From Escherichia coli (lineage in GTDB: Bacteria > Pseudomonadota > Gammaproteobacteria > Enterobacterales > Enterobacteriaceae): a stretch of 64,000 nucleotides of DNA. Numbering within the stretch: the first letter of the stretch is position 1; each line of letters opens with the position of its first letter. The position numbers and the translations under genes are program-made. The notes beneath the pieces are model-generated. The model was not told the origin of the DNA. It worked only from the letters and a program-made list of their open reading frames with translations, and made no database searches. The stretch lies in the NCBI RefSeq assembly GCF_030013595.1, contig NZ_CP122768.1. The stretch is one strand, 5' to 3'. Below, piece by piece: positions 12,479-27,291 of this stretch.

Positions 12479-12769
12479 TACATGTTGTAGCAACCCCGTA
12501 CTGATTATGAAGAATAATCAGTACGGGGATTAATCAAAACATTCAACATTTATATATTCCAATATTTATTTATTTAATATATGAATATATTAACCAGTGG
12601 AATACCTGTGTTTTGATTATTTCTGAAGATTTTGAATGAATGCTTATTGTCTGATACACAAGAAATAACACTCTTTTTATCGTTAAAAAATGATATTTCA
12701 CTTTGCCCATGCCGTTAAAGTCACTGATAATGCGTCCGTTCGTAAATTCAAAATGGCGTAATCTATTAT

Positions 12770-16732: not shown

Positions 16733-18082
16733 TTGGCGGGTCTTAACATCAAACATTGGTTTGCAGATGGCGCGTTTCGCACCATTATTCGCAATAGCGC
16801 CTGGTTAGGCTCCAGTAATGTCGTGAGCGCCTTGCTGGGTCTGTTGGCGCTCTCGTGTGCCGGTAAAGGGATGACGCCCGCCATGTTTGGCGTACTGGTG
16901 ATTGTGCAATCGTACGCCAAGTCGATCAGCGATTTTATTAAGTTTCAGACATGGCAGTTGGTGGTGCAGTACGGAACGCCAGCCTTGACCAACAATAATC
17001 CGCAGCAATTTCGCAATGTCGTCTCATTTTCCTTCTCGCTGGATATCGTCAGCGGCGCGGTGGCGATTGTCGGCGGCATTGCCTTACTGCCATTCCTTTC
17101 CCATTCATTAGGTCTGGATGACCAAAGCTTTTGGCTGGCGGCGCTGTATTGCACGCTCATTCCTTCAATGGCTTCCTCCACGCCGACCGGCATTCTGCGT
17201 GCGGTAGATCGCTTCGATCTAATTGCTGTACAGCAGGCGACGAAACCTTTTCTGCGCGCAGCGGGGAGCGTCGTAGCTTGGTATTTTGACTTTGGTTTTG
17301 CGGGTTTTGTTATTGCCTGGTACGTGTCGAATCTGGTTGGCGGCACCATGTACTGGTGGTTTGCCGCGCGCGAATTACGCCGCAGAAATATCCATAACGC
17401 GTTCAAATTGAATCTGTTTGAGTCTGCCCGACACATTAAAGGCGCGTGGAGTTTTGTCTGGTCAACCAACATTGCCCACTCCATCTGGTCGGCACGTAAC
17501 TCGTGCAGCACAGTGTTGGTGGGGATCGTGTTAGGACCCGCTGCCGCCGGGTTATTTAAAATCGCCATGACATTCTTCGACGCCGCCGGAACGCCAGCGG
17601 GTTTACTGGGTAAAAGTTTTTACCCAGAGGTGATGCGTTTAGATCCGCGCACCACCAGACCGTGGTTGTTAGGCGTGAAGTCCGGTTTACTGGCGGGCGG
17701 AATCGGTATTCTGGTGGCGCTCGCGGTGTTGATCGTCGGCAAGCCGCTCATTTCGCTGGTGTTTGGCGTTAAGTATCTCGAAGCGTATGACCTGATTCAG
17801 GTGATGCTGGGCGCAATTGTGATCTCGATGCTGGGCTTCCCACAGGAGTCATTGCTATTGATGGCGGGAAAACAGCGCGCTTTTCTCGTGGCGCAAACCA
17901 TCGCCTCAATCGGCTACATCGTATTGCTGTTCATGTTCTGTCATCTGTTTGGCGTGCTGGGGGCTGCATTTGCTTACTTCGGTGGGCAATGTCTGGATGT
18001 GGTGTTCTCGCTAATTCCGACCTTAAAGGCATTTTTTCAGCGCCATTCCTTGCTTTATAACGCAGCCGGAGAGAAATCCTGA
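16733..18082 (+). CDS. yghQ: Multi-span inner membrane protein, MOP/Wzx-like flippase family (start uncertain)
   Basis: 449-aa hydrophobic ORF; stop TGA overlaps the next ATG (ATGATG at 18079-18084); synteny with yghQ. Confidence 0.7.
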   Translation: MAGLNIKHWFADGAFRTIIRNSAWLGSSNVVSALLGLLALSCAGKGMTPAMFGVLVIVQSYAKSISDFIKFQTWQLVVQYGTPALTNNNPQQFRNVVSFSFSLDIVSGAVAIVGGIALLPFLSHSLGLDDQSFWLAALYCTLIPSMASSTPTGILRAVDRFDLIAVQQATKPFLRAAGSVVAWYFDFGFAGFVIAWYVSNLVGGTMYWWFAARELRRRNIHNAFKLNLFESARHIKGAWSFVWSTNIAHSIWSARNSCSTVLVGIVLGPAAAGLFKIAMTFFDAAGTPAGLLGKSFYPEVMRLDPRTTRPWLLGVKSGLLAGGIGILVALAVLIVGKPLISLVFGVKYLEAYDLIQVMLGAIVISMLGFPQESLLLMAGKQRAFLVAQTIASIGYIVLLFMFCHLFGVLGAAFAYFGGQCLDVVFSLIPTLKAFFQRHSLLYNAAGEKS

Positions 18083-18918
18083 TGATGAGAAAATATTTCC
18101 CGCTTGAGGCGAGCGAGCGTCTATTTGTTGCGATTGAAGAAGATGATGTCGTTGATGCACAGGTCAGTTTGCCGCCGACTATCGCACTAAGTTGTACCAC
18201 CGAAATCATCCATGATAATTACGCGTTATGCCTGAAATTCTGGCTGGATGGTGTTAATCGTCAGGAGCTACTGCGTTTAATCCGCAAACAGGCGAAAGGC
18301 GATGAGCTGACGACAGACGAGCGCAAAAAGTATAAATACATGCGAGCGCGCTACAAGCATCTGCGCTTTGCGCAACGGCTGTATTTAAAGAAGCATCAGG
18401 CCGGATTTTTATTCGGCAAAACGACCGTTTTTTTGGGGCGTTTTCAGGACGGCTTTCGTAACGGTAAGAAAAATATTGTGTCGTATTACGGCAACCTGTT
18501 ACGGGTTTATTTAAGCTCTCCGGTCTGGTCGTTGGTGAACTATTCATTACGCCATAGCCAGTTAGAAAGCGTAAGCGGTTTTATTGCCTATCGGCAAAAG
18601 CAAATGCATACCCTGAAAGAGATAATTGCCAAACCGCGACTAACTGGCAGGGAATTTCATGATGTGCGAAAAATCATCAGCCAGCAGGTTTCTTATTACG
18701 ACACCCTAAGATCGCTTGATCCTGAAAATAAAGAGGCGTTACAGATTTCCCGCTTCCTCGCCGCCATTAATGGCCTGATGGGGGATAAACACGACGACAT
18801 GGTGGCGGATGATATGGAAAACCGCCAGTCGTATGATGCACCGATGGCGCTGGATAGCGATATTCGTCAGCGCTTAGAACTGCTGATTTCGCGTTTCCCA
18901 CTATATCCGGAGCAATAA
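18082..18918 (+). CDS. Hypothetical cytoplasmic protein (278 aa), translationally coupled to yghQ
   Basis: Long ORF with start overlapping the yghQ stop and stop overlapping the next start (TAATG); basic and charged, no signal peptide seen. Confidence 0.55.
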   Translation: MMRKYFPLEASERLFVAIEEDDVVDAQVSLPPTIALSCTTEIIHDNYALCLKFWLDGVNRQELLRLIRKQAKGDELTTDERKKYKYMRARYKHLRFAQRLYLKKHQAGFLFGKTTVFLGRFQDGFRNGKKNIVSYYGNLLRVYLSSPVWSLVNYSLRHSQLESVSGFIAYRQKQMHTLKEIIAKPRLTGREFHDVRKIISQQVSYYDTLRSLDPENKEALQISRFLAAINGLMGDKHDDMVADDMENRQSYDAPMALDSDIRQRLELLISRFPLYPEQ

Positions 18919-19478
18919 TGCCATCTCGTTGGATTTTCGCTCTGATCATCGCACTCTTAGCGCCAGGCGCGGCGGCACACAATTTCGTCACTGGCAAAAC
19001 GGTTACCCCTGTTTATATCCAGGAAGGTGGTGAGCTGCTTCTGAATAGCGATGACGAAATTCACTACCAAAAGTGGAACAGCACACAATTGGCGGGAAAA
19101 GTCCGCATTATTCAGTATATCGCCGGGCGTAAGTCGGCGAAGAAAAAGAACTCACTGTTAATTAAAGCGGTTGAAGCGGCAAACTTTCCACAGGATCGTT
19201 TTCAGCCCACCACCATTGTGAACACCGATGATGCCATCTTTGGTACTGGCTATTTTGTCGTTGGCAAAATCGAAAAAAATAAACGCCGCTATCCGTGGGC
19301 GCAATTCGTTATTGACGGCAATGGACAGGGACGTGTTGCTTGGCGGTTGCCGGAGCAGAGTTCAACCATTCTGGTGCTGAATAAAGCCGGGCAAATTCAG
19401 TGGGCAAAGGACGGCAGCCTGACGCCGGAAGAGGTAGATCATGTCATTGCGCTGGCGCAGAAGCTGATCAATGAATAA
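18918..19478 (+). CDS. Hypothetical secreted/periplasmic protein (186 aa)
   Basis: N-terminal signal peptide MPSRWIFALIIALLAPGAAAHNF (AxA cleavage-type site, no lipobox Cys). Confidence 0.55.
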   Translation: MPSRWIFALIIALLAPGAAAHNFVTGKTVTPVYIQEGGELLLNSDDEIHYQKWNSTQLAGKVRIIQYIAGRKSAKKKNSLLIKAVEAANFPQDRFQPTTIVNTDDAIFGTGYFVVGKIEKNKRRYPWAQFVIDGNGQGRVAWRLPEQSSTILVLNKAGQIQWAKDGSLTPEEVDHVIALAQKLINE

Positions 19479-19508
19479 AAAACTCAAAGGATTGAGGGCA
19501 TTAGTGGG

Positions 19509-20579
19509 ATGAAGCTGGTTGAACACTACATCATGCGTGGTACGCGCCGTCTGGTGCTGATTATCGTCGGTTTTCTGATCTTTATTTTCGCCAGCTACTC
19601 CGCACAGCGTTATCTGACCGAAGCGGCAAATGGGACATTAGCTCTTGATGTTGTGCTGGATATTGTTTTCTACAAGGTGCTGATTGCACTGGAGATGTTG
19701 TTACCTGTTGGACTGTATGTGTCAGTTGGCGTGACGCTAGGGCAGATGTATACCGACTCGGAAATTACCGCTATTTCTGCGGCGGGGGGGAGTCCGGGAC
19801 GCTTGTACAAAGCCGTTCTTTATCTGGCGATACCGCTAAGTATTTTTGTCACCCTTCTGTCGATGTATGGTCGGCCGTGGGCTTATGCGCAGATTTATCA
19901 ACTGGAGCAACAGTCGCAGTCGGAGCTGGATGTTCGCCAGTTGCGGGCAAAGAAATTTAACACTAACGATAACGGACGAATGATCCTTTCGCAGACGGTT
20001 GATCAGGATAATAATCGCCTGACTGACGTGCTGATTTATACTTCTACTGCCAATCGAACCCGTATTTTCCGCGCCCGTTCGGTTGATGTGGTTGACCCAT
20101 CACCCGAGAAACCGACCGTTATGTTGCACAACGGCACTGCCTATCTTCTCGATCATCAGGGGCGTGACGACAACGAACAGATCTACCGTCATCTGCAATT
20201 ACATCTGAATCCGCTGGATCAAAGCCCTAACGTCAAACGCAAAGCGAAATCGGTCACGGAGCTGGCGCGCTCCGTCTTTCCAGCCGATCATGCCGAACTG
20301 CAATGGCGACAAAGCCGTGGCCTGACAGCATTGTTGATGGCGCTGCTGGCCATTTCATTAAGTCGGGTAAAACCGCGGCAAGGGCGATTTTCAACATTAT
20401 TGCCACTGACGTTGCTGTTTATTGCCATTTTTTATGGCGGCGACGTCTGCCGTACGCTGGTGGCTAACGGCGCGATTCCCCTCATTCCTGGTTTGTGGTT
20501 AGTACCCGGACTCATGCTAATGGGCCTGCTGATGCTGGTCGCACGCGACTTCTCTTTGCTGCAGAAATTTTCCCGATGA
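19509..20579 (+). CDS. LptF-like permease (YjgP/YjgQ family) paralog
   Basis: 356 aa; membrane topology and YTDSEITAISAAG segment resemble the LptF/LptG family. Confidence 0.7.
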   Translation: MKLVEHYIMRGTRRLVLIIVGFLIFIFASYSAQRYLTEAANGTLALDVVLDIVFYKVLIALEMLLPVGLYVSVGVTLGQMYTDSEITAISAAGGSPGRLYKAVLYLAIPLSIFVTLLSMYGRPWAYAQIYQLEQQSQSELDVRQLRAKKFNTNDNGRMILSQTVDQDNNRLTDVLIYTSTANRTRIFRARSVDVVDPSPEKPTVMLHNGTAYLLDHQGRDDNEQIYRHLQLHLNPLDQSPNVKRKAKSVTELARSVFPADHAELQWRQSRGLTALLMALLAISLSRVKPRQGRFSTLLPLTLLFIAIFYGGDVCRTLVANGAIPLIPGLWLVPGLMLMGLLMLVARDFSLLQKFSR

Positions 20580-21655
20580 ATGTTTTCAGTCGCTATTTAA
20601 TCCGTCATCTCTTTCTCGGTTTTGCCGCCGCCGCAGGGCTATTGCTGCCGCTTTTTACCACCTTCAACCTGATTAACGAACTGGATGATGTCAGCCCGGG
20701 TGGTTATCGCTGGACTCAGGCGGTGCTGGTGGTGCTGATGACCTTACCGCGCACACTGGTCGAACTTTCGCCGTTTATCGCATTATTGGGAGGGATTGTT
20801 GGCCTGGGGCAGTTATCGAAAAACAGTGAGCTTACCGCCATTCGCAGCACGGGGTTTTCTATCTTCCGTATTGCACTAGTGGCGCTGGTTGCCGGGATAT
20901 TTTGGACTGTTTCGTTAGGCGCGATAGATGAGTGGGTGGCGTCGCCATTGCAGCAACAGGCGCTGCAAATCAAATCGACTGCCACCGCGTTGGGGGAGGA
21001 CGATGACATTACCGGCAATATGCTTTGGGCCAGGCGCGGTAATGAATTTGTGACGGTGAAATCGCTGAACGAGCAGGGCCAGCCTGTGGGCGTGGAGATA
21101 TTTCATTATCGCGACGATCTCTCGCTCGAATCCTACATTTTTGCACGCAGTGCCTCCATTGAAGACGACAAAACGTGGATCCTGCATGGTGTGAATCATA
21201 AAAAATGGTTGAATGGCAAAGAAACGCTGGAAACATCAGATAATCTTGCCTGGCAATCGGCCTTCACCAGTATGAATCTTGAAGAGTTATCGATGCCGGG
21301 AAATACTTTTTCTGTCCGTCAACTTAATCATTACATCCATTATTTGCAGGAAACTGGGCAACCCAGCAGCGAATACCGCCTTGCACTGTGGGAAAAACTG
21401 GGACAACCCATCCTGACTCTGGCGATGATTTTGCTGGCTGTGCCGTTTACCTTTAGTGCCCCGCGTTCGCCTGGGATGGGTAGCCGTCTCGCTGTAGGCG
21501 TCATCGTGGGCTTACTTACCTGGATCAGCTATCAAATCATGGTCAATCTGGGATTGCTATTTGCGTTGAGCGCACCTGTTACCGCGCTCGGTTTACCGGT
21601 AGCGTTTGTGCTGGTGGCGTTGAGCCTGGTGTATTGGTATGACAGACAACATTAA
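20576..21655 (+). CDS. LptG-like permease (YjgP/YjgQ family) paralog
   Basis: Start ATG 20576 overlapping upstream stop (ATGA); 359 aa; N-terminal MNVFSRYLIRHLF typical of LptF/G permeases. Confidence 0.7.
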   Translation: MNVFSRYLIRHLFLGFAAAAGLLLPLFTTFNLINELDDVSPGGYRWTQAVLVVLMTLPRTLVELSPFIALLGGIVGLGQLSKNSELTAIRSTGFSIFRIALVALVAGIFWTVSLGAIDEWVASPLQQQALQIKSTATALGEDDDITGNMLWARRGNEFVTVKSLNEQGQPVGVEIFHYRDDLSLESYIFARSASIEDDKTWILHGVNHKKWLNGKETLETSDNLAWQSAFTSMNLEELSMPGNTFSVRQLNHYIHYLQETGQPSSEYRLALWEKLGQPILTLAMILLAVPFTFSAPRSPGMGSRLAVGVIVGLLTWISYQIMVNLGLLFALSAPVTALGLPVAFVLVALSLVYWYDRQH

Positions 21656-21689: not shown

Positions 21690-22862
21690 TTACTGCTTCA
21701 GAGTAGCGAACGCTTGAATGATGGCATCAATTTGCTCACGACTGTGGGCAGCGTTTACGCTACAGCGCAGCAGCGTGATGCCTGCAGGCGCGGCAGGTGG
21801 CAGGATAAGATTCACATAAACGCCCAGCGAAATAAGCTCGCGCCAGATGCGTAAACCTTCCTCTTTCGAACCGATTATTACTGGCACTACCGGGCTAATA
21901 TGTGAACTTAACTCATAACCCAGTTTTTGCAGACCGTCATACAGATGGTTGGCATTATCCATCAGCTTTTGCCGCAACTCTGGTTGTGTAGCAATGGTTC
22001 TTAACGACGAGCGCACGGTCGCAATGCAGGACGGAGAAGGAGAGGCGGTAAAAATATACGGGCGGCTGCCGTAGCGCAGCACTTCCATCGCTTCCGAACC
22101 GACAGCAAAACCGCCAATCGAGGCCAGACTTTTACTGAAAGTACCAACGATAATATCCACATCATCTTCAACGCCAACGGCTTCAGCCAGTCCGCGCCCC
22201 GTTGCGCCTAACACGCCAAACGAATGCGCTTCATCGACAATCAAATAACCACCGAGACGACGTTTGATATCAACAATTTCCGCCAGCGGCGCAACGTCAC
22301 CGAGCATACTGTAGATGCCTTCAACGATGATAATCGCCTCTTTTGCCCGTTCACCGAGGCGAACCATGCGCCGTTCCAGATCTTTAGCATCGTTATGGCG
22401 GAAACGAATAATTTCCGCGCCACCGAGAGAACAGGCGTCATAAATACTGGCGTGGCTGTCGGCATCCAGTAACACCACGGCGTTATGGTCGGCAAGTGCG
22501 CTGATGACGCCTAAATTAGCGGTATAACCGGTTGAAAAAACGATAGCGGTAGGGCGATTAAAAAACTCGGCGATCTCTTTCTCTAACGCCAGATGCGGCG
22601 CATAACTGCCGTTTGCCATACGAGAACCGGTGGTGCCGGTGCCTTGGGCCGCTAACGCTGCCTGACCTTCGGCGATGGCATCATGATTAAAGGTTAAACC
22701 GAGATAATTATTGGTCCCGGCCAGAATCACTTTTTTATTGCCGATCCGACCTTCGGTGGCGGAATACACTTCATCAATACAGGTGCCAAACGGTGTTAAC
22801 CCGTTGTCACTAAATTGCAGTCGCTCGCCAGCAAGGCGCGCATATTTATCGTATAGCCCCAT
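21690..22862 (-). CDS. PLP-dependent alpha-oxoamine synthase, serine palmitoyltransferase-like
   Basis: 390 aa; class I/II aminotransferase fold; DEAHSFG and GTFSKSL (PLP-lysine) motifs. Confidence 0.8.
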   Translation of the reverse strand: MGLYDKYARLAGERLQFSDNGLTPFGTCIDEVYSATEGRIGNKKVILAGTNNYLGLTFNHDAIAEGQAALAAQGTGTTGSRMANGSYAPHLALEKEIAEFFNRPTAIVFSTGYTANLGVISALADHNAVVLLDADSHASIYDACSLGGAEIIRFRHNDAKDLERRMVRLGERAKEAIIIVEGIYSMLGDVAPLAEIVDIKRRLGGYLIVDEAHSFGVLGATGRGLAEAVGVEDDVDIIVGTFSKSLASIGGFAVGSEAMEVLRYGSRPYIFTASPSPSCIATVRSSLRTIATQPELRQKLMDNANHLYDGLQKLGYELSSHISPVVPVIIGSKEEGLRIWRELISLGVYVNLILPPAAPAGITLLRCSVNAAHSREQIDAIIQAFATLKQ

Positions 22863-23110
22863 TATTTATTCTCCAGCCATGGAAGTAGTGTTTCCATTAA
22901 TTGCGCAGGGGTTTTGACATCCAGCAGAATATTAATAGGAATGGAAATATCGAATCTGTCTTCCAGCATCATTAAGAGATCCATCACTTTGATCGACTCC
23001 AGGCCAAGATCGTTGACGAGATCGCTGTCGGACTTAATTTCCACACCGTTTTCGACCAAATCCTGTAAACAGGAAAGGATGTAATCCATTACTATTTCAC
23101 GATTTACCAT
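22862..23110 (-). CDS. Acyl carrier protein
   Basis: 82 aa, acidic, with DLGLESIKVMDL phosphopantetheine-attachment-type serine motif. Confidence 0.75.
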   Translation of the reverse strand: MVNREIVMDYILSCLQDLVENGVEIKSDSDLVNDLGLESIKVMDLLMMLEDRFDISIPINILLDVKTPAQLMETLLPWLENK

Positions 23111-23141: not shown

Positions 23142-24056
23142 TCAAAATAGCCCGTTGCGTAATGCGTGTTCCAGGCTAATCCCGGGAAACCAATTAATAT
23201 CTTCAGAAATACGGTTATTACTTGCCGACCAGTCGGCATGAGTTAATTCACGGATTTTCGAACGAGTCAGCATCGGTTCTTTACCCGCCAGACGGCTCAA
23301 CGCGGTACTGATATCCGCAAGGCAGGTGAGTAGCGGCAGAGGAATACCGACCATCCGCACGGAACCACAGCGGACATCGGCAATAAGCTGTTGGACACGT
23401 TGCCAGTCATAGCCTCCGGCGACGCCATCGCATAATTCATAGGTTTGCGTCTGTACAGTTTCGGCGCTTAACCACTGCCCCACGGCTTGCGCGAAATCGG
23501 TGACGTGCAGGAAAGAGAGCTGTGTATCTGGCGCACCAAGTCGTGGCAGTAGGCCGCGCAGCATCCAGTCAAACAGCGGTTTTAACTCTTTATCGCCGGG
23601 ACCATACACGGCTGTCGGGCGAAAAATGCCCAGCGTAATTTCGTCAGCCATTGCGGTCAGTCGTTGTTCGGCGACGTGTTTGGAATTTGCGTACCAGGAG
23701 AGTTCGGGATGGCGCGCCGCCAGCGAAGAGATAAACAGAAAACGTTGGCAAAAGCCGCTCTCTTTTGCCGCTTGCATCAGTCGCAGGCTGCCGTCAACGT
23801 TACAGCGGGTAAAAATCTCTTCTTTGTGCCCGCGCACTTGCCCGGCGCAATGGACCACCGCGCTGGCTCCGGCAACCAGTTCGCTAAGTGAATGAGTATC
23901 TTCCAGAGAACCGCGCACCCAGATGAGATTGTCATTGACGTGAGCGCGGGCAGTACGCGTCAATGCGCGAACGTGAAAGCCGCGGGCGAGCAGGTTATCG
24001 ATAATATATTTACCGATAAACCCGGTAGCGCCCGTCACCGCGACAGTTTGATTCAT
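23142..24056 (-). CDS. NAD(P)-dependent epimerase/dehydratase-family reductase
   Basis: 304 aa; N-terminal Rossmann motif VTGATGFIGKYI. Confidence 0.75.
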   Translation of the reverse strand: MNQTVAVTGATGFIGKYIIDNLLARGFHVRALTRTARAHVNDNLIWVRGSLEDTHSLSELVAGASAVVHCAGQVRGHKEEIFTRCNVDGSLRLMQAAKESGFCQRFLFISSLAARHPELSWYANSKHVAEQRLTAMADEITLGIFRPTAVYGPGDKELKPLFDWMLRGLLPRLGAPDTQLSFLHVTDFAQAVGQWLSAETVQTQTYELCDGVAGGYDWQRVQQLIADVRCGSVRMVGIPLPLLTCLADISTALSRLAGKEPMLTRSKIRELTHADWSASNNRISEDINWFPGISLEHALRNGLF

Positions 24057-25804
24057 GCCAGGGATTCCTGCACATGAAGGCTTGCAGCATAAGCCTTCTG
24101 ATAACGTTTTTTCGCTTCCGCACGGGCAGGCTTGCCGGAGGACGTTCGGGGAATACTGTGGGGCGGCAACAGATCGATAGCCGCGGTCACGCCAAATTCG
24201 CTTTGGATCGGTGCTGCCAGCGCGTGGATAAGCTGCCCGCGACGTTCTTCATCGCTGATCCGACACTGGATCTGCAAAATGATTTTTTCCTGGGCGGTAA
24301 CAAAAGCAATCGCATCGCCAGAATGAATTTCCGGTTCCTGTTCCGCAATATATTCAATATCCTGCGGCCAGATATTACGGCCACGAATAATAATCAGATC
24401 TTTAATGCGCCCGGTGACATACAGATAACCGTCCAGCAGATAACCGAGGTCGCCGGTGTCTAACCAGCCCGTCGCGGCAATCTCGTCTTGTGAAATCTGG
24501 TCGCCAAAGTAACCGCTCATCAGGCTAGGGCCGGAGATGCAAATATGGCCTACCACACGTTCCGCGACAGGTATACCTGCTTCATTGCGGATTTCAATGC
24601 CATGTTCTGGCAACGCTTTACCGCAGTTGACGAAAGTCGATACGGCGCGTGTTTCAGCACCCGGCGCGACGGCTTTGCCCTGATATTCAAGGATGTCGCG
24701 ATCCACTTCGTTAACCACAACCCCGGAGGCTTCATCAGAGAAGCTGACAGCCAGCGCATTTTCTGCCAGTCCGTAGCACGGCATGAACGTTTTATCGTCA
24801 AAGTTAACCTGACGGAAACATTCAGCGAATTGATGGAGTTGTTCTGCGGAGATCGGCTCAGCACCAATACCAGCGACGCGCCAGCAGGATAGATCCAGTT
24901 CAGCGAGATCTTTTTCATTCACGCGGCGCTGGCACAATTCATAGCCAAACGGCGGCGCAACGGAAACGGTGCCGCGATTTTTACTGATCAATTTAAGCCA
25001 TTGCAGAGGACGCATGGCAAAATCCTGAGTGCGCAAATAATCTACTGAGAGCTGCGTGGCGACGGGGGTCAGGAGAAAGCCGACCAGTCCCATATCATGG
25101 TAGAAAGGCAGCCAGGAGACGCAGCGGTCGCCAGGGCGTAATTTAATGCCATCGTGGCTTATAGCACGTAGATTAGCCATCACTTCGCGATGGGTGATAA
25201 TGACGCCACGGGGAAAACGGGTGCTGCCGGAGGTGTACTGGAGGTAGGCGATATCGTTCGGAACTGGATGCTGGAGTGCAACATCGGCTTCCGGTAATGC
25301 CTTAAACCAGGCGTGGCTTAAAACATGTAATTCGGGGTTGTTGTTATGCGTCGCGGCATTGACCAGCGGTAACCACTCATCACCAGTGATAATGGCTGCG
25401 GGCTGGCAACTTGTCAGTAAACCCTGCAGTTTGGCGCTCCAGGAATCCCGCTGACCGACGCCCATTGGAATCGCCAACGGGACGGCGACTAAGCCGGCAT
25501 ACTGGCAGGAAAAAAAAGCCTCTACGAACCCGCTACTGGTTTCGGCAATCAGCGCCACGCGATCGCCTTTTTTCAGGTTCAGCGATAACAATCGCTTCGC
25601 ACCAGCTTCGGCACGCGCTTTTAACGTCTGATATTCCAGTTGATCTTCAAGTTGGCAACGTCTGTCATAAAAATTCATTCCGGCGCTACTCAGAGCGGCG
25701 TAGTCCAAAGCATCAACCAGCGTTGGAAAATCGGCATAGCGCATAGGTAGGGAATGCGTAAAGATTTTATTAGACATATACACCACGAAAAAATTGGATA
25801 TCAA
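24053..25804 (-). CDS. Fatty acyl-AMP ligase / acyl-ACP synthetase (AMP-binding family)
   Basis: 583 aa; AMP-binding motif YLQYTSGSTRFPRGV; start may be at a downstream Met. Confidence 0.8.
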   Translation of the reverse strand: MISNFFVVYMSNKIFTHSLPMRYADFPTLVDALDYAALSSAGMNFYDRRCQLEDQLEYQTLKARAEAGAKRLLSLNLKKGDRVALIAETSSGFVEAFFSCQYAGLVAVPLAIPMGVGQRDSWSAKLQGLLTSCQPAAIITGDEWLPLVNAATHNNNPELHVLSHAWFKALPEADVALQHPVPNDIAYLQYTSGSTRFPRGVIITHREVMANLRAISHDGIKLRPGDRCVSWLPFYHDMGLVGFLLTPVATQLSVDYLRTQDFAMRPLQWLKLISKNRGTVSVAPPFGYELCQRRVNEKDLAELDLSCWRVAGIGAEPISAEQLHQFAECFRQVNFDDKTFMPCYGLAENALAVSFSDEASGVVVNEVDRDILEYQGKAVAPGAETRAVSTFVNCGKALPEHGIEIRNEAGIPVAERVVGHICISGPSLMSGYFGDQISQDEIAATGWLDTGDLGYLLDGYLYVTGRIKDLIIIRGRNIWPQDIEYIAEQEPEIHSGDAIAFVTAQEKIILQIQCRISDEERRGQLIHALAAPIQSEFGVTAAIDLLPPHSIPRTSSGKPARAEAKKRYQKAYAASLHVQESLA

Positions 25805-26148
25805 AAATAAAATGACAATAATGCGGTGGATTATATAGGCATAAAAGATAAATGAGATAGTATTTTCATTAGTGTGAAAATGAACATTGATTTAAATAAT
25901 GAGTTTGAGTTTTTTTGTTTTTATTGTGAATGATATTTAATTTATGAATGTATTAAGAAGAAGCCTTGTCCGGTCGCCTTAAATCGACAAAAGGCATTGT
26001 GGCGCTTCTGTGTAGTCTCTGACCTTATCGTAATCATTAATAAATGCTATTTATTCGTCGTTTGTATTCATTGGGTTGATTATTAAGGTGCCGTTCGTTG
26101 CTGTTGCAACCTGTTTGTCACCGTTAATTATTTGTTACCCACAGAACT
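25805..26148. promoter_or_regulatory. AT-rich divergent promoter region between the lipid operon and yghO
   Basis: About 340 nt of strongly AT-rich non-coding DNA between divergent gene starts. Confidence 0.4.
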
Positions 26149-27291
26149 ATGGAATGCGATCTGCTGATGATTAAAATTGAAAAAGTAATTAATAAAAATG
26201 ACCTTAAGGCATTTATCGCTTTTCCGTCATCACTTTATCCCGACGATCCAAACTGGATACCCCCTTTATTCATTGAACGCAACGAGCATTTGTCTGCGAA
26301 AAATCCGGGGACGGACCATATCATCTGGCAGGCGTGGGTGGCAAAAAAAGCGGGGCAGATAGTCGGGCGTATTACCGCGCAAATAGATACCTTGCACCGC
26401 GAGCGTTACGGCAAAGATACCGGTCATTTCGGCATGATTGACGCCATTGATGATCCGCAGGTTTTTGCCGCGTTGTTTGGCGCAGCGGAAGCGTGGTTGA
26501 AGTCACAAGGTGCAAGTAAGATCAGCGGGCCTTTCAGCCTGAATATCAATCAGGAAAGCGGATTACTGATTGAAGGTTTTGACACACCACCCTGTGCGAT
26601 GATGCCACACGGCAAACCGTGGTATGCCGCGCATATTGAACAACTGGGTTATCACAAAGGCATTGATTTACTGGCGTGGTGGATGCAGCGAACCGATCTC
26701 ACGTTCTCTCCGGCGCTAAAAAAACTGATGGATCAGGTGCGCAAAAAGGTGACCATTCGCTGCATCAATCGCCAGCGGTTTGCCGAAGAGATGCAGATCC
26801 TGCGTGAGATTTTCAACTCCGGCTGGCAGCACAACTGGGGATTTGTGCCGTTTACCGAACATGAATTCGCGACCATGGGCGATCAACTTAAATATCTGGT
26901 GCCGGACGATATGATCTACATCGCTGAGATTGATTCTGCACCCTGCGCGTTTATTGTCGGCTTGCCAAACATCAACGAGGCGATTGCCGATCTGAACGGA
27001 TCGCTCTTTCCCTTCGGCTGGGCAAAATTGCTGTGGCGTTTAAAAGTCAGCGGTGTGCGAACTGCGCGAGTACCGCTGATGGGCGTGCGGGACGAGTATC
27101 TGTTTAGCCGCATCGGCCCGGTGATTGCGCTGTTATTGATTGAAGCCTTACGCGATCCGTTTGCCCGCCGGAAGATCGATGCGCTGGAGATGTCATGGAT
27201 CCTCGAAACCAATACAGGCATGAATAACATGCTGGAACGCATTGGGGCGGAGCCGTACAAGCGTTACCGATTGTATGAAAAGCAGATTTGA
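26149..27291 (+). CDS. yghO: Acetyltransferase-fold (GNAT-like) protein; putative N-acyltransferase (intact here)
   Basis: 380-aa ORF at the yghO position next to glcC; fold assignment from reading the translation, not searched. Confidence 0.6.
   Translation: MECDLLMIKIEKVINKNDLKAFIAFPSSLYPDDPNWIPPLFIERNEHLSAKNPGTDHIIWQAWVAKKAGQIVGRITAQIDTLHRERYGKDTGHFGMIDAIDDPQVFAALFGAAEAWLKSQGASKISGPFSLNINQESGLLIEGFDTPPCAMMPHGKPWYAAHIEQLGYHKGIDLLAWWMQRTDLTFSPALKKLMDQVRKKVTIRCINRQRFAEEMQILREIFNSGWQHNWGFVPFTEHEFATMGDQLKYLVPDDMIYIAEIDSAPCAFIVGLPNINEAIADLNGSLFPFGWAKLLWRLKVSGVRTARVPLMGVRDEYLFSRIGPVIALLLIEALRDPFARRKIDALEMSWILETNTGMNNMLERIGAEPYKRYRLYEKQI

Follow-up and report, generated by a model that had tools for sequence, protein, structure and literature searches.

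The question raised by this locus is how the long AT-rich DNA between two divergent genes, yghO and the first gene of an acyl-AMP ligase operon, takes part in their control, and whether it marks these genes as foreign and silenced. The locus lies in a stretch of 64,000 nucleotides of Escherichia coli DNA, which was analyzed at its full length and is called the window here. The initial annotation described about 340 nt of AT-rich DNA as typical of the xenogeneic-silencer-bound promoters of horizontally acquired genes, and proposed that silencing would explain why the module could be cryptic in the laboratory. The AT-rich divergent spacer is real, with 32.0% GC at 25805-26148. Its yghO edge stands, as yghO is annotated to start at 26149, but its aasR edge does not. 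The left edge had been placed at 25805 because the longest aasR ORF begins at TTG 25804. The RefSeq start of aasR is ATG 25777, and therefore the whole aasR/yghO divergent intergenic region is 25778-26148, a spacer of 371 nt. The RefSeq annotation was transferred from NZ_CP028192.1 (strain CFSAN018748), to which the 551 nt around the spacer are 100% identical. The reading favored in this manuscript, which we consider likely, is that the spacer is a two-way control region composed of a conserved aasR promoter part and a variable part with islands, and that its AT-richness is ancestral.

Several start codons are in play at the two edges. For aasR these are the TTG at 25804, the ATG at 25777, which is used in RefSeq and in most strains (574 aa), and a later start in the annotation of EAEC 042 (1689 nt, 562 aa). 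In Citrobacter, Pseudocitrobacter and Hafnia the aasR ATG lies three codons upstream, at a position where E. coli has GTG (25786). At the other edge, the first six codons of yghO (MECDLL; 26149-26169) are Escherichia-specific, and other genera have no start codon at the equivalent of M1. Because the yghO homologues of other genera align only from residue 5-7, M7 (ATG 26167) may be the true start. A good Shine-Dalgarno sequence is absent at both of these yghO ATGs.

The genes on either side of the spacer identify the module. All five ceramide gene types (spt, acpR, aasR, epi/cerR and aca/bCerS) are present and clustered at the locus. On the minus strand, the first gene of the operon is aasR (24053-25777), which encodes a fatty acyl-AMP ligase or specialised acyl-ACP synthetase (RefSeq; Pfam AMP-binding, E = 2.7e-57). 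It is followed by epi (23142-24056), for an NAD-dependent epimerase/dehydratase-family protein (RefSeq; Pfam Epimerase), acpR (22862-23110), for an acyl carrier protein (RefSeq; Pfam PP-binding), and spt (21690-22862), for a serine palmitoyltransferase (RefSeq; Pfam Aminotran_1_2). On the plus strand, yghO (26149-27291; "protein YghO" in RefSeq) encodes a putative N-acyltransferase (aca, ceramide synthase-like). The Pfam scan gave no match for YghO; the other four cluster proteins have matching Pfam domains.

The orthologous genes have been studied in Caulobacter crescentus (CC_1162-CC_1165 and CC_1154) and in E. coli BL21(DE3), where they are ECD_02851 (aasR), ECD_02852 (epi), ECD_02853 (acpR), ECD_02854 (spt) and ECD_02850 (yghO/aca) (Padilla-Gomez et al., PMC9386255). 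The five genes together represent dihydroceramide synthesis, and among the species compared they were clustered only in Caulobacter and E. coli (PMC9386255). Those authors named yghO as the homologue of CC_1154, and they proposed that ECD_02852 is the presumptive ketosphinganine reductase and yghO/aca the presumptive N-acyltransferase (PMC9386255). The AasR, AcpR and SPT proteins of BL21(DE3) work biochemically (PMC9386255). The published work on the Caulobacter and BL21(DE3) cluster was concerned with the enzymes, while the present analysis deals with the spacer between the orthologous genes and its predicted promoters. The spacer, its promoters and regulation are not mentioned in the text of that paper, and the terms "not expressed," "silent" and "cryptic" are absent from it (PMC9386255). 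A five-gene block at 16733-21655 adjoins the ceramide operon and is convergent with it. The block consists of a yghQ-type "lipopolysaccharide biosynthesis protein," a hypothetical protein, a YtfJ-family protein and paralogues of lptF and lptG. These genes could encode a system that exports the lipid product of the ceramide cluster. Of this block, K-12 retains just a truncated yghQ.

Base composition was analyzed across the window. The spacer has 31.8% GC versus 52.5% for the whole window, and a GC content this low is reached by only 0.7% of the 371-nt windows. The composition is uneven along the spacer, with 23% GC at 25778-25960, 48% at 25961-26035 and 35% at 26036-26148. An equally high AT content occurs in three other promoter-bearing spacers of the annotated 32 kb: gss/pitB (12479-12769; 291 nt, 29.9% GC), yghT/yghS (173 nt, 30.1% GC) and glcA/sslE (36738-37222; 485 nt, 32.0% GC). 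Since these match aasR/yghO in AT content, the confirmed feature belongs to a common class of E. coli spacer. Thus, the AT-richness is beyond chance relative to bulk sequence but ordinary among the promoter-bearing spacers nearby, and as regulatory DNA of a known gene cluster the spacer is unexceptional. A comparison with glcC/glcD, a typical divergent sigma-70 region in the same window, gives a similar picture. Both regions have back-to-back genes, an AT-rich spacer, a recognizable -10 element, which for aasR/yghO is a predicted one, and conserved sequence at the core promoter. However, the aasR/yghO spacer is longer (371 vs 250 nt) and lower in GC (31.8% vs 43.6%), and, unlike such typical regions, it contains a single convincing promoter candidate.

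The initial annotation took the genes to be horizontally acquired. Low coding GC, a patchy distribution and a variable site were looked for, and the opposite was found for each. First, the coding GC of the ceramide cluster is 0.41-0.55, the same as that of the neighboring genes. Secondly, the locus is present in 4137 of 5426 complete E. coli genomes (approximately 76%, counted at a coverage of at least 80% of the query region), where it is chromosomal, at one site and in one copy each. Third, a YghO scan with one genome per species gave 44 loci, and aasR lies divergently upstream of yghO in 42 of them. The genes epi, acpR and spt lie beyond aasR in nearly all of these 42 loci, where the fetched DNA extends far enough. 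The 42 loci include other Escherichia species, Shimwellia, Citrobacter, Pluralibacter, Pseudocitrobacter, Serratia, Klebsiella indica, Tatumella, Erwinia, Pantoea, Rosenbergiella, Rahnella, Cedecea, Hafnia, Sodalis and two Pseudomonas, so that the divergent layout with a long AT-rich spacer extends over more than 15 genera of Enterobacterales. Across these loci the spacer is 270-1095 nt long and its GC content is approximately 7-27 points (mostly 10-20) below that of the flanking coding sequence. Because all 42 loci have a long AT-rich spacer, it is an old, inherited trait of the ceramide cluster. Its AT-richness is ancestral across Enterobacterales and is no mark of recent foreign DNA. The evidence says that the module is not foreign, at least not recently, and that it is an old near-core locus. 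Two further yghO-like sequences were seen during this survey. Shimwellia pseudoproteus has a second yghO paralogue with no adjoining aasR cluster, and a 430-nt low-coverage contig of "Macrococcus sp. DPC7161" shows 99% protein identity to E. coli yghO, which is probably contamination.

The E. coli strains without the locus lost it by deletions associated with insertion sequences or with a prophage-like element. In the K-12 lineage, IS5 and a deletion extend from yghQ into the 5' end of yghO, with an endpoint near 26189 (also PMC11677980). Three distinct IS1-linked deletions each end within the spacer, near 26069 in Ecol_AZ147, near 25860 in ATCC 8739 and near 26110 in FORC_082. The deletions that end in or beside the spacer thus number four independent events (one IS5, three IS1), two of which begin in the gss/pitB spacer. 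It thus seems that AT-rich spacers serve as targets for IS elements, and loss of the ceramide cluster has occurred repeatedly. In O157:H7 Sakai (NC_002695.2 3852167-3876852), everything between pheV and a truncated pitB is gone and SpLE3 is in its place. The Sakai deletion covers sslE, the glc operon, yghO, the ceramide cluster and yghQRST, and the SpLE3 found there carries espL2, nleB1 and nleE.

The internal two-part structure of the spacer, as a conservation map, is the new result of this analysis. The map is based on an alignment (A1) of six Escherichia lineages: the window, Nissle 1917, E. whittamii and three GTDB species representatives. At 25778-25869, beside aasR, 90 of 92 positions are invariant in A1. 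This near-invariant core, which is read on the minus strand, would comprise the predicted aasR 5' leader (approximately 46 nt) and the core promoter. In the most distant Escherichia pair only 2 differences were observed in these 92 nt, versus 21-31 expected under neutral drift. The slightly larger block 25778-25900 is 93.5-96% identical in every Escherichia comparison; in the same comparisons the identity at 4-fold degenerate sites is 0.66-0.88 for aasR and 0.77-0.955 for yghO. Among 4151 E. coli genomes, 4132 have this block at 95% identity or more, and in none does it drop under 90%. In contrast, 840 of 4130 genomes have less than 95% identity over the remaining 248 nt (25901-26148), and 482 of these 840 lie at 80-90%. 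The invariance of the 92-nt core and the population data agree in marking constrained promoter-proximal DNA, and they indicate strong purifying selection on the 92-123 nt beside aasR. The approximately 250 nt of remainder evolve at the neutral rate or faster. The middle of the spacer (25901-26035, including the GC-richer island at 25961-26035 with 48% GC) has an identity of 0.51-0.75 to the divergent lineages. The middle and the yghO side together show 51-76% identity in distant Escherichia lineages, which is at or below synonymous-site identity, and carry indels.

A spacer made up mostly of AT-rich filler that has no function and reflects mutational bias, with a minimal promoter at either end and a length without regulatory meaning, would account for part of this pattern. 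The 135-250 nt in the middle change at or above the synonymous rate, spacer length differs severalfold between genera within the range given above, and a central block conserved in other genera (described below) is missing from Escherichia. However, the strong constraint on the aasR-side block does not fit filler, nor does the persistence of a long spacer in 42 of 42 loci, never shorter than 270 nt. In addition, three conserved islands survive in the variable part: GTAATCATTAATAAAT (26030-26045), a small island amid scrambled sequence and within palindrome I5; GTGCCGTTCGTTGCTGT (26088-26104, plus strand), upstream of yghO; and TTAATTATTTGTTACCCAC (26123-26141, plus strand), an imperfect palindrome (I3) just before the yghO start and a possible -10 region or operator. 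For these reasons filler is quite unlikely as an account of the whole spacer. On the favored reading of a two-way control region, the three islands in the approximately 250-nt remainder probably include the yghO promoter or operator. A terminator-like hairpin at 26097-26110, GTTGCTGTTGCAAC, adjoins the island GTGCCGTTCGTTGCTGT. A 7-nt deletion removes it in two lineages, and therefore the hairpin is no conserved feature and was set aside.

The promoter scan points to the same side of the spacer as the conservation map. Promoter scores were calculated with our own approximate, sigma-70-like position weight matrix (PWM). A perfect -10 element, TATAAT, lies on the minus strand at 25830-25835 (25835 to 25830) with a score of 10.1. 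This is the best aasR-facing sigma-70-like site, and only 10 sites in the 128 kb of window sequence score 10 or higher. From its position we infer an aasR promoter with a predicted transcription start near 25823 and a leader of approximately 46 nt. The -10 element is kept as TATAAT in all Escherichia and is TATAAC in Pseudocitrobacter, the sole other genus whose spacer still aligns with the Escherichia spacer. At a spacing of 17 nt from it the PWM scan found a weak -35-like element on the minus strand, ATCTCA (25853-25858), with 3 of 6 matches. A strong -10 combined with a poor -35 is typical of promoters that have little basal activity and require an activator, which suggests that the predicted aasR promoter is weakly active on its own or depends on activation. 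For yghO, the PWM scan did not find a convincing promoter; its best candidate is TTGCAA-N16-AATTAT, with a score of 7.4. A simple consensus promoter scan of both strands of the spacer gave nothing above chance.

An inverted repeat, TTCATT-N8-AATGAA (25862-25887; repeat pair I10), lies upstream of the predicted aasR promoter. It is the sole variable patch in the conserved block (A1 columns 123-133) and may be a regulator site. Three candidate sites for known regulators were compared by eye against consensus sequences, and none of them is claimed here. The CRP candidate (TGTGA, 25873-25877) and the FadR candidate (TTGTCCGGTCGCC, approximately 25964-25976) are half-sites or marginal, and their bases vary between Escherichia lineages. 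The Fur candidate (around 26030-26045) is also a half-site or marginal. In Serratia and Klebsiella indica, a near-perfect palindrome, TTGAATAA-N5-TTATTCAA, is conserved approximately 85-105 nt upstream of aasR and looks like a site for a dimeric regulator; a clear counterpart is absent in E. coli.

The strong conservation beside aasR could also be due to an unrecognized element that is not a promoter. A small RNA, a leader of the riboswitch type or a gene for a small protein could explain both the conserved block and the length of the spacer, as the block of approximately 92-123 nt is conserved to the level of coding sequence and the longer spacers of other genera (600-1100 nt) share a conserved central block. 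We consider such a hidden element very improbable, for several reasons. First, an Rfam scan of the window spacer and of the spacers of four other genera gave no match at E-values up to 1. Secondly, when folded as RNA, the two putative leaders and the GC-richer island showed no excess of stability over shuffled sequences (z -0.17 to -0.97). Third, the only three small ORFs encode 29-32 aa, two of the three have a TTG start, and all lie in sequence with indels between lineages, so they were rejected; across the 42 spacers no ORF is conserved between genera. Lastly, the block reaches right up to the aasR start codon, as expected of a promoter with its leader. It most likely holds the aasR core promoter and that leader.

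In many other Enterobacterales the spacer is 600-800 nt long and contains a conserved central block of approximately 95-140 nt with the core AAAGCATTAAGTGGTAAAA. The block also has an upstream TTAAACA...TAAACAGTA, for example at spacer positions 310-450 of a representative locus (L014). The block gave no Rfam match and may represent a promoter, an operator or an RNA outside the known classes. An nhmmer profile of the block matches ten further spacers, from Serratia, Pluralibacter, Erwinia, Rahnella, Citrobacter amalonaticus and Hafnia. The same profile has no match in Escherichia, Pseudocitrobacter or Rosenbergiella (at E-values up to 10 for the window and the other Escherichia). The sequence AAAAGGCATTGTGGCGC (approximately 26000-26020) had been considered as a decayed copy of the block, and the nhmmer profile did not support it.

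The initial annotation held that the spacer is typical of xenogeneic-silencer-bound promoters. In its strongest form, this would make the spacer a nucleation site for H-NS/StpA on a horizontally acquired module, with H-NS silencing as the main cause of its crypticity. The composition agrees with H-NS binding; the counts of the H-NS motif speak against a specific site. The spacer has 68.2% AT over 371 nt and a 183-nt part with 77% AT, and within a 297-nt stretch of it no 100-nt window drops under 65% AT, the richest reaching 82%. These AT levels lie within the range preferred by H-NS. The repeated IS1- and IS5-linked deletions ending in or beside the spacer also count for H-NS, as IS1 and IS5 favor AT-rich DNA of the H-NS-bound kind. 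The high-affinity nucleation motif of H-NS (tCGATAAATT-like, TCGATAAATT) is common in its targets but not obligatory. Relative to composition-matched shuffles of the spacer, this consensus is not enriched, with 1 site versus 1.05 expected at up to 2 mismatches and 7 versus 7.6 at up to 3. A crude check of curvature found 19 A-tracts with no significant phasing at 10-11.5 bp (P = 0.13-0.91), and the AA/TT power at 10.5 bp, also a crude test, gave P = 0.064.

The E. coli promoter regions proU, bgl, hdeAB and yghJ/sslE-gsp are AT-rich and repressed by H-NS. The last of these, the sslE (yghJ)-gsp operon, lies in the same window, and we take it to be H-NS-repressed as reported. The aasR/yghO spacer is likewise long, promoter-bearing and approximately 68% AT, with downstream genes poorly expressed in the laboratory. 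It differs from these regions in that its Lang-type motif is unenriched, its A-tracts show no significant phasing and no AT-rich gene body is present for a filament. As the flanking coding DNA is normal in GC, an H-NS complex formed here would stay within the spacer, with little for H-NS to spread over.

Published data bear on the same point. H-NS ChAP-seq of SE11 and SE15 is available (Higashi et al. 2016, PMC4720273), and SE11 carries the locus (NC_011415.1 3389330-3389699). RNA-seq of hns and hns2 mutants is available for EAEC 042, whose locus includes EC042_RS17425 (yghO) and RS17430 (PMC5861252). In the SE11 and SE15 study, H-NS-bound upstream spacers evolve faster than others (median diversity 0.013 vs 0.005), and gss, which adjoins the equally AT-rich gss/pitB spacer, is H-NS-bound according to Table S2 (PMC4720273). 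The non-core part of the aasR/yghO spacer likewise diverges fast, which gives H-NS binding mild and indirect support (PMC4720273). The literature search found no paper connecting H-NS to yghO or spt, and the ETEC H10407 ChIP-seq supplements do not mention the locus. Judged by composition alone, binding of the spacer by H-NS is somewhat favored. A foreign module silenced chiefly by H-NS is unlikely, as the cluster's coding GC equals that of its neighbors and the locus occupies one site in most complete E. coli genomes and keeps the same layout in many Enterobacterales. Apart from any foreign origin, H-NS as the main cause of silence is similarly doubtful. On the favored reading of a two-way control region, H-NS probably binds the AT-rich spacer and may add to low expression in the laboratory.

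Whether the module is cryptic in the laboratory, as the initial annotation suggested, has a divided answer. BL21(DE3) with empty vectors or with an SPT alone, its own SPT included, makes no 3-oxo-sphinganine (PMC9386255). This lack of product from the native cluster supports crypticity, and would also be expected if H-NS silenced the cluster. The compound appeared only upon joint overexpression of AcpR, AasR and an SPT, in complex medium at 30 C (PMC9386255). The authors suggested that the compounds resembling sphinganine and ceramide which then formed arise from the intrinsic products of ECD_02852 and yghO (PMC9386255). If these intrinsic products act, their expression is above zero and the operon is not fully silent. 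The weak -35 beside the perfect -10 offers a second possible explanation of low expression, in which a silencer would be unneeded. In addition, the proteins and the promoter block are under purifying selection, which argues for use of the cluster in nature and against its decay.

Taken together, the spacer would drive aasR-epi-acpR-spt leftward and yghO rightward. The 92-123 nt beside aasR most likely represent the aasR core promoter, its leader of approximately 46 nt and an upstream inverted repeat that is possibly bound by a regulator. The value of the spacer lies in what it controls, a complete ceramide cluster in approximately 76% of complete E. coli genomes whose regulation was so far undescribed. 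The conservation map corrects the idea of a foreign island. It points the search for the switch to the approximately 120 nt adjoining aasR and to the three short islands on the yghO side, and it makes promoter-reporter screens and pull-downs straightforward to design. A more specific possibility, which we regard as unlikely, is that the conserved 92-123 nt are the site of a dedicated activator or signal-responsive regulator which, with H-NS on the remainder, would keep the operon off in the laboratory and turn it on in its niche. If this is true, the regulator or signal would show that most E. coli (approximately three quarters of sequenced strains, K-12 and O157:H7 Sakai not among them) can make sphingolipids on demand.
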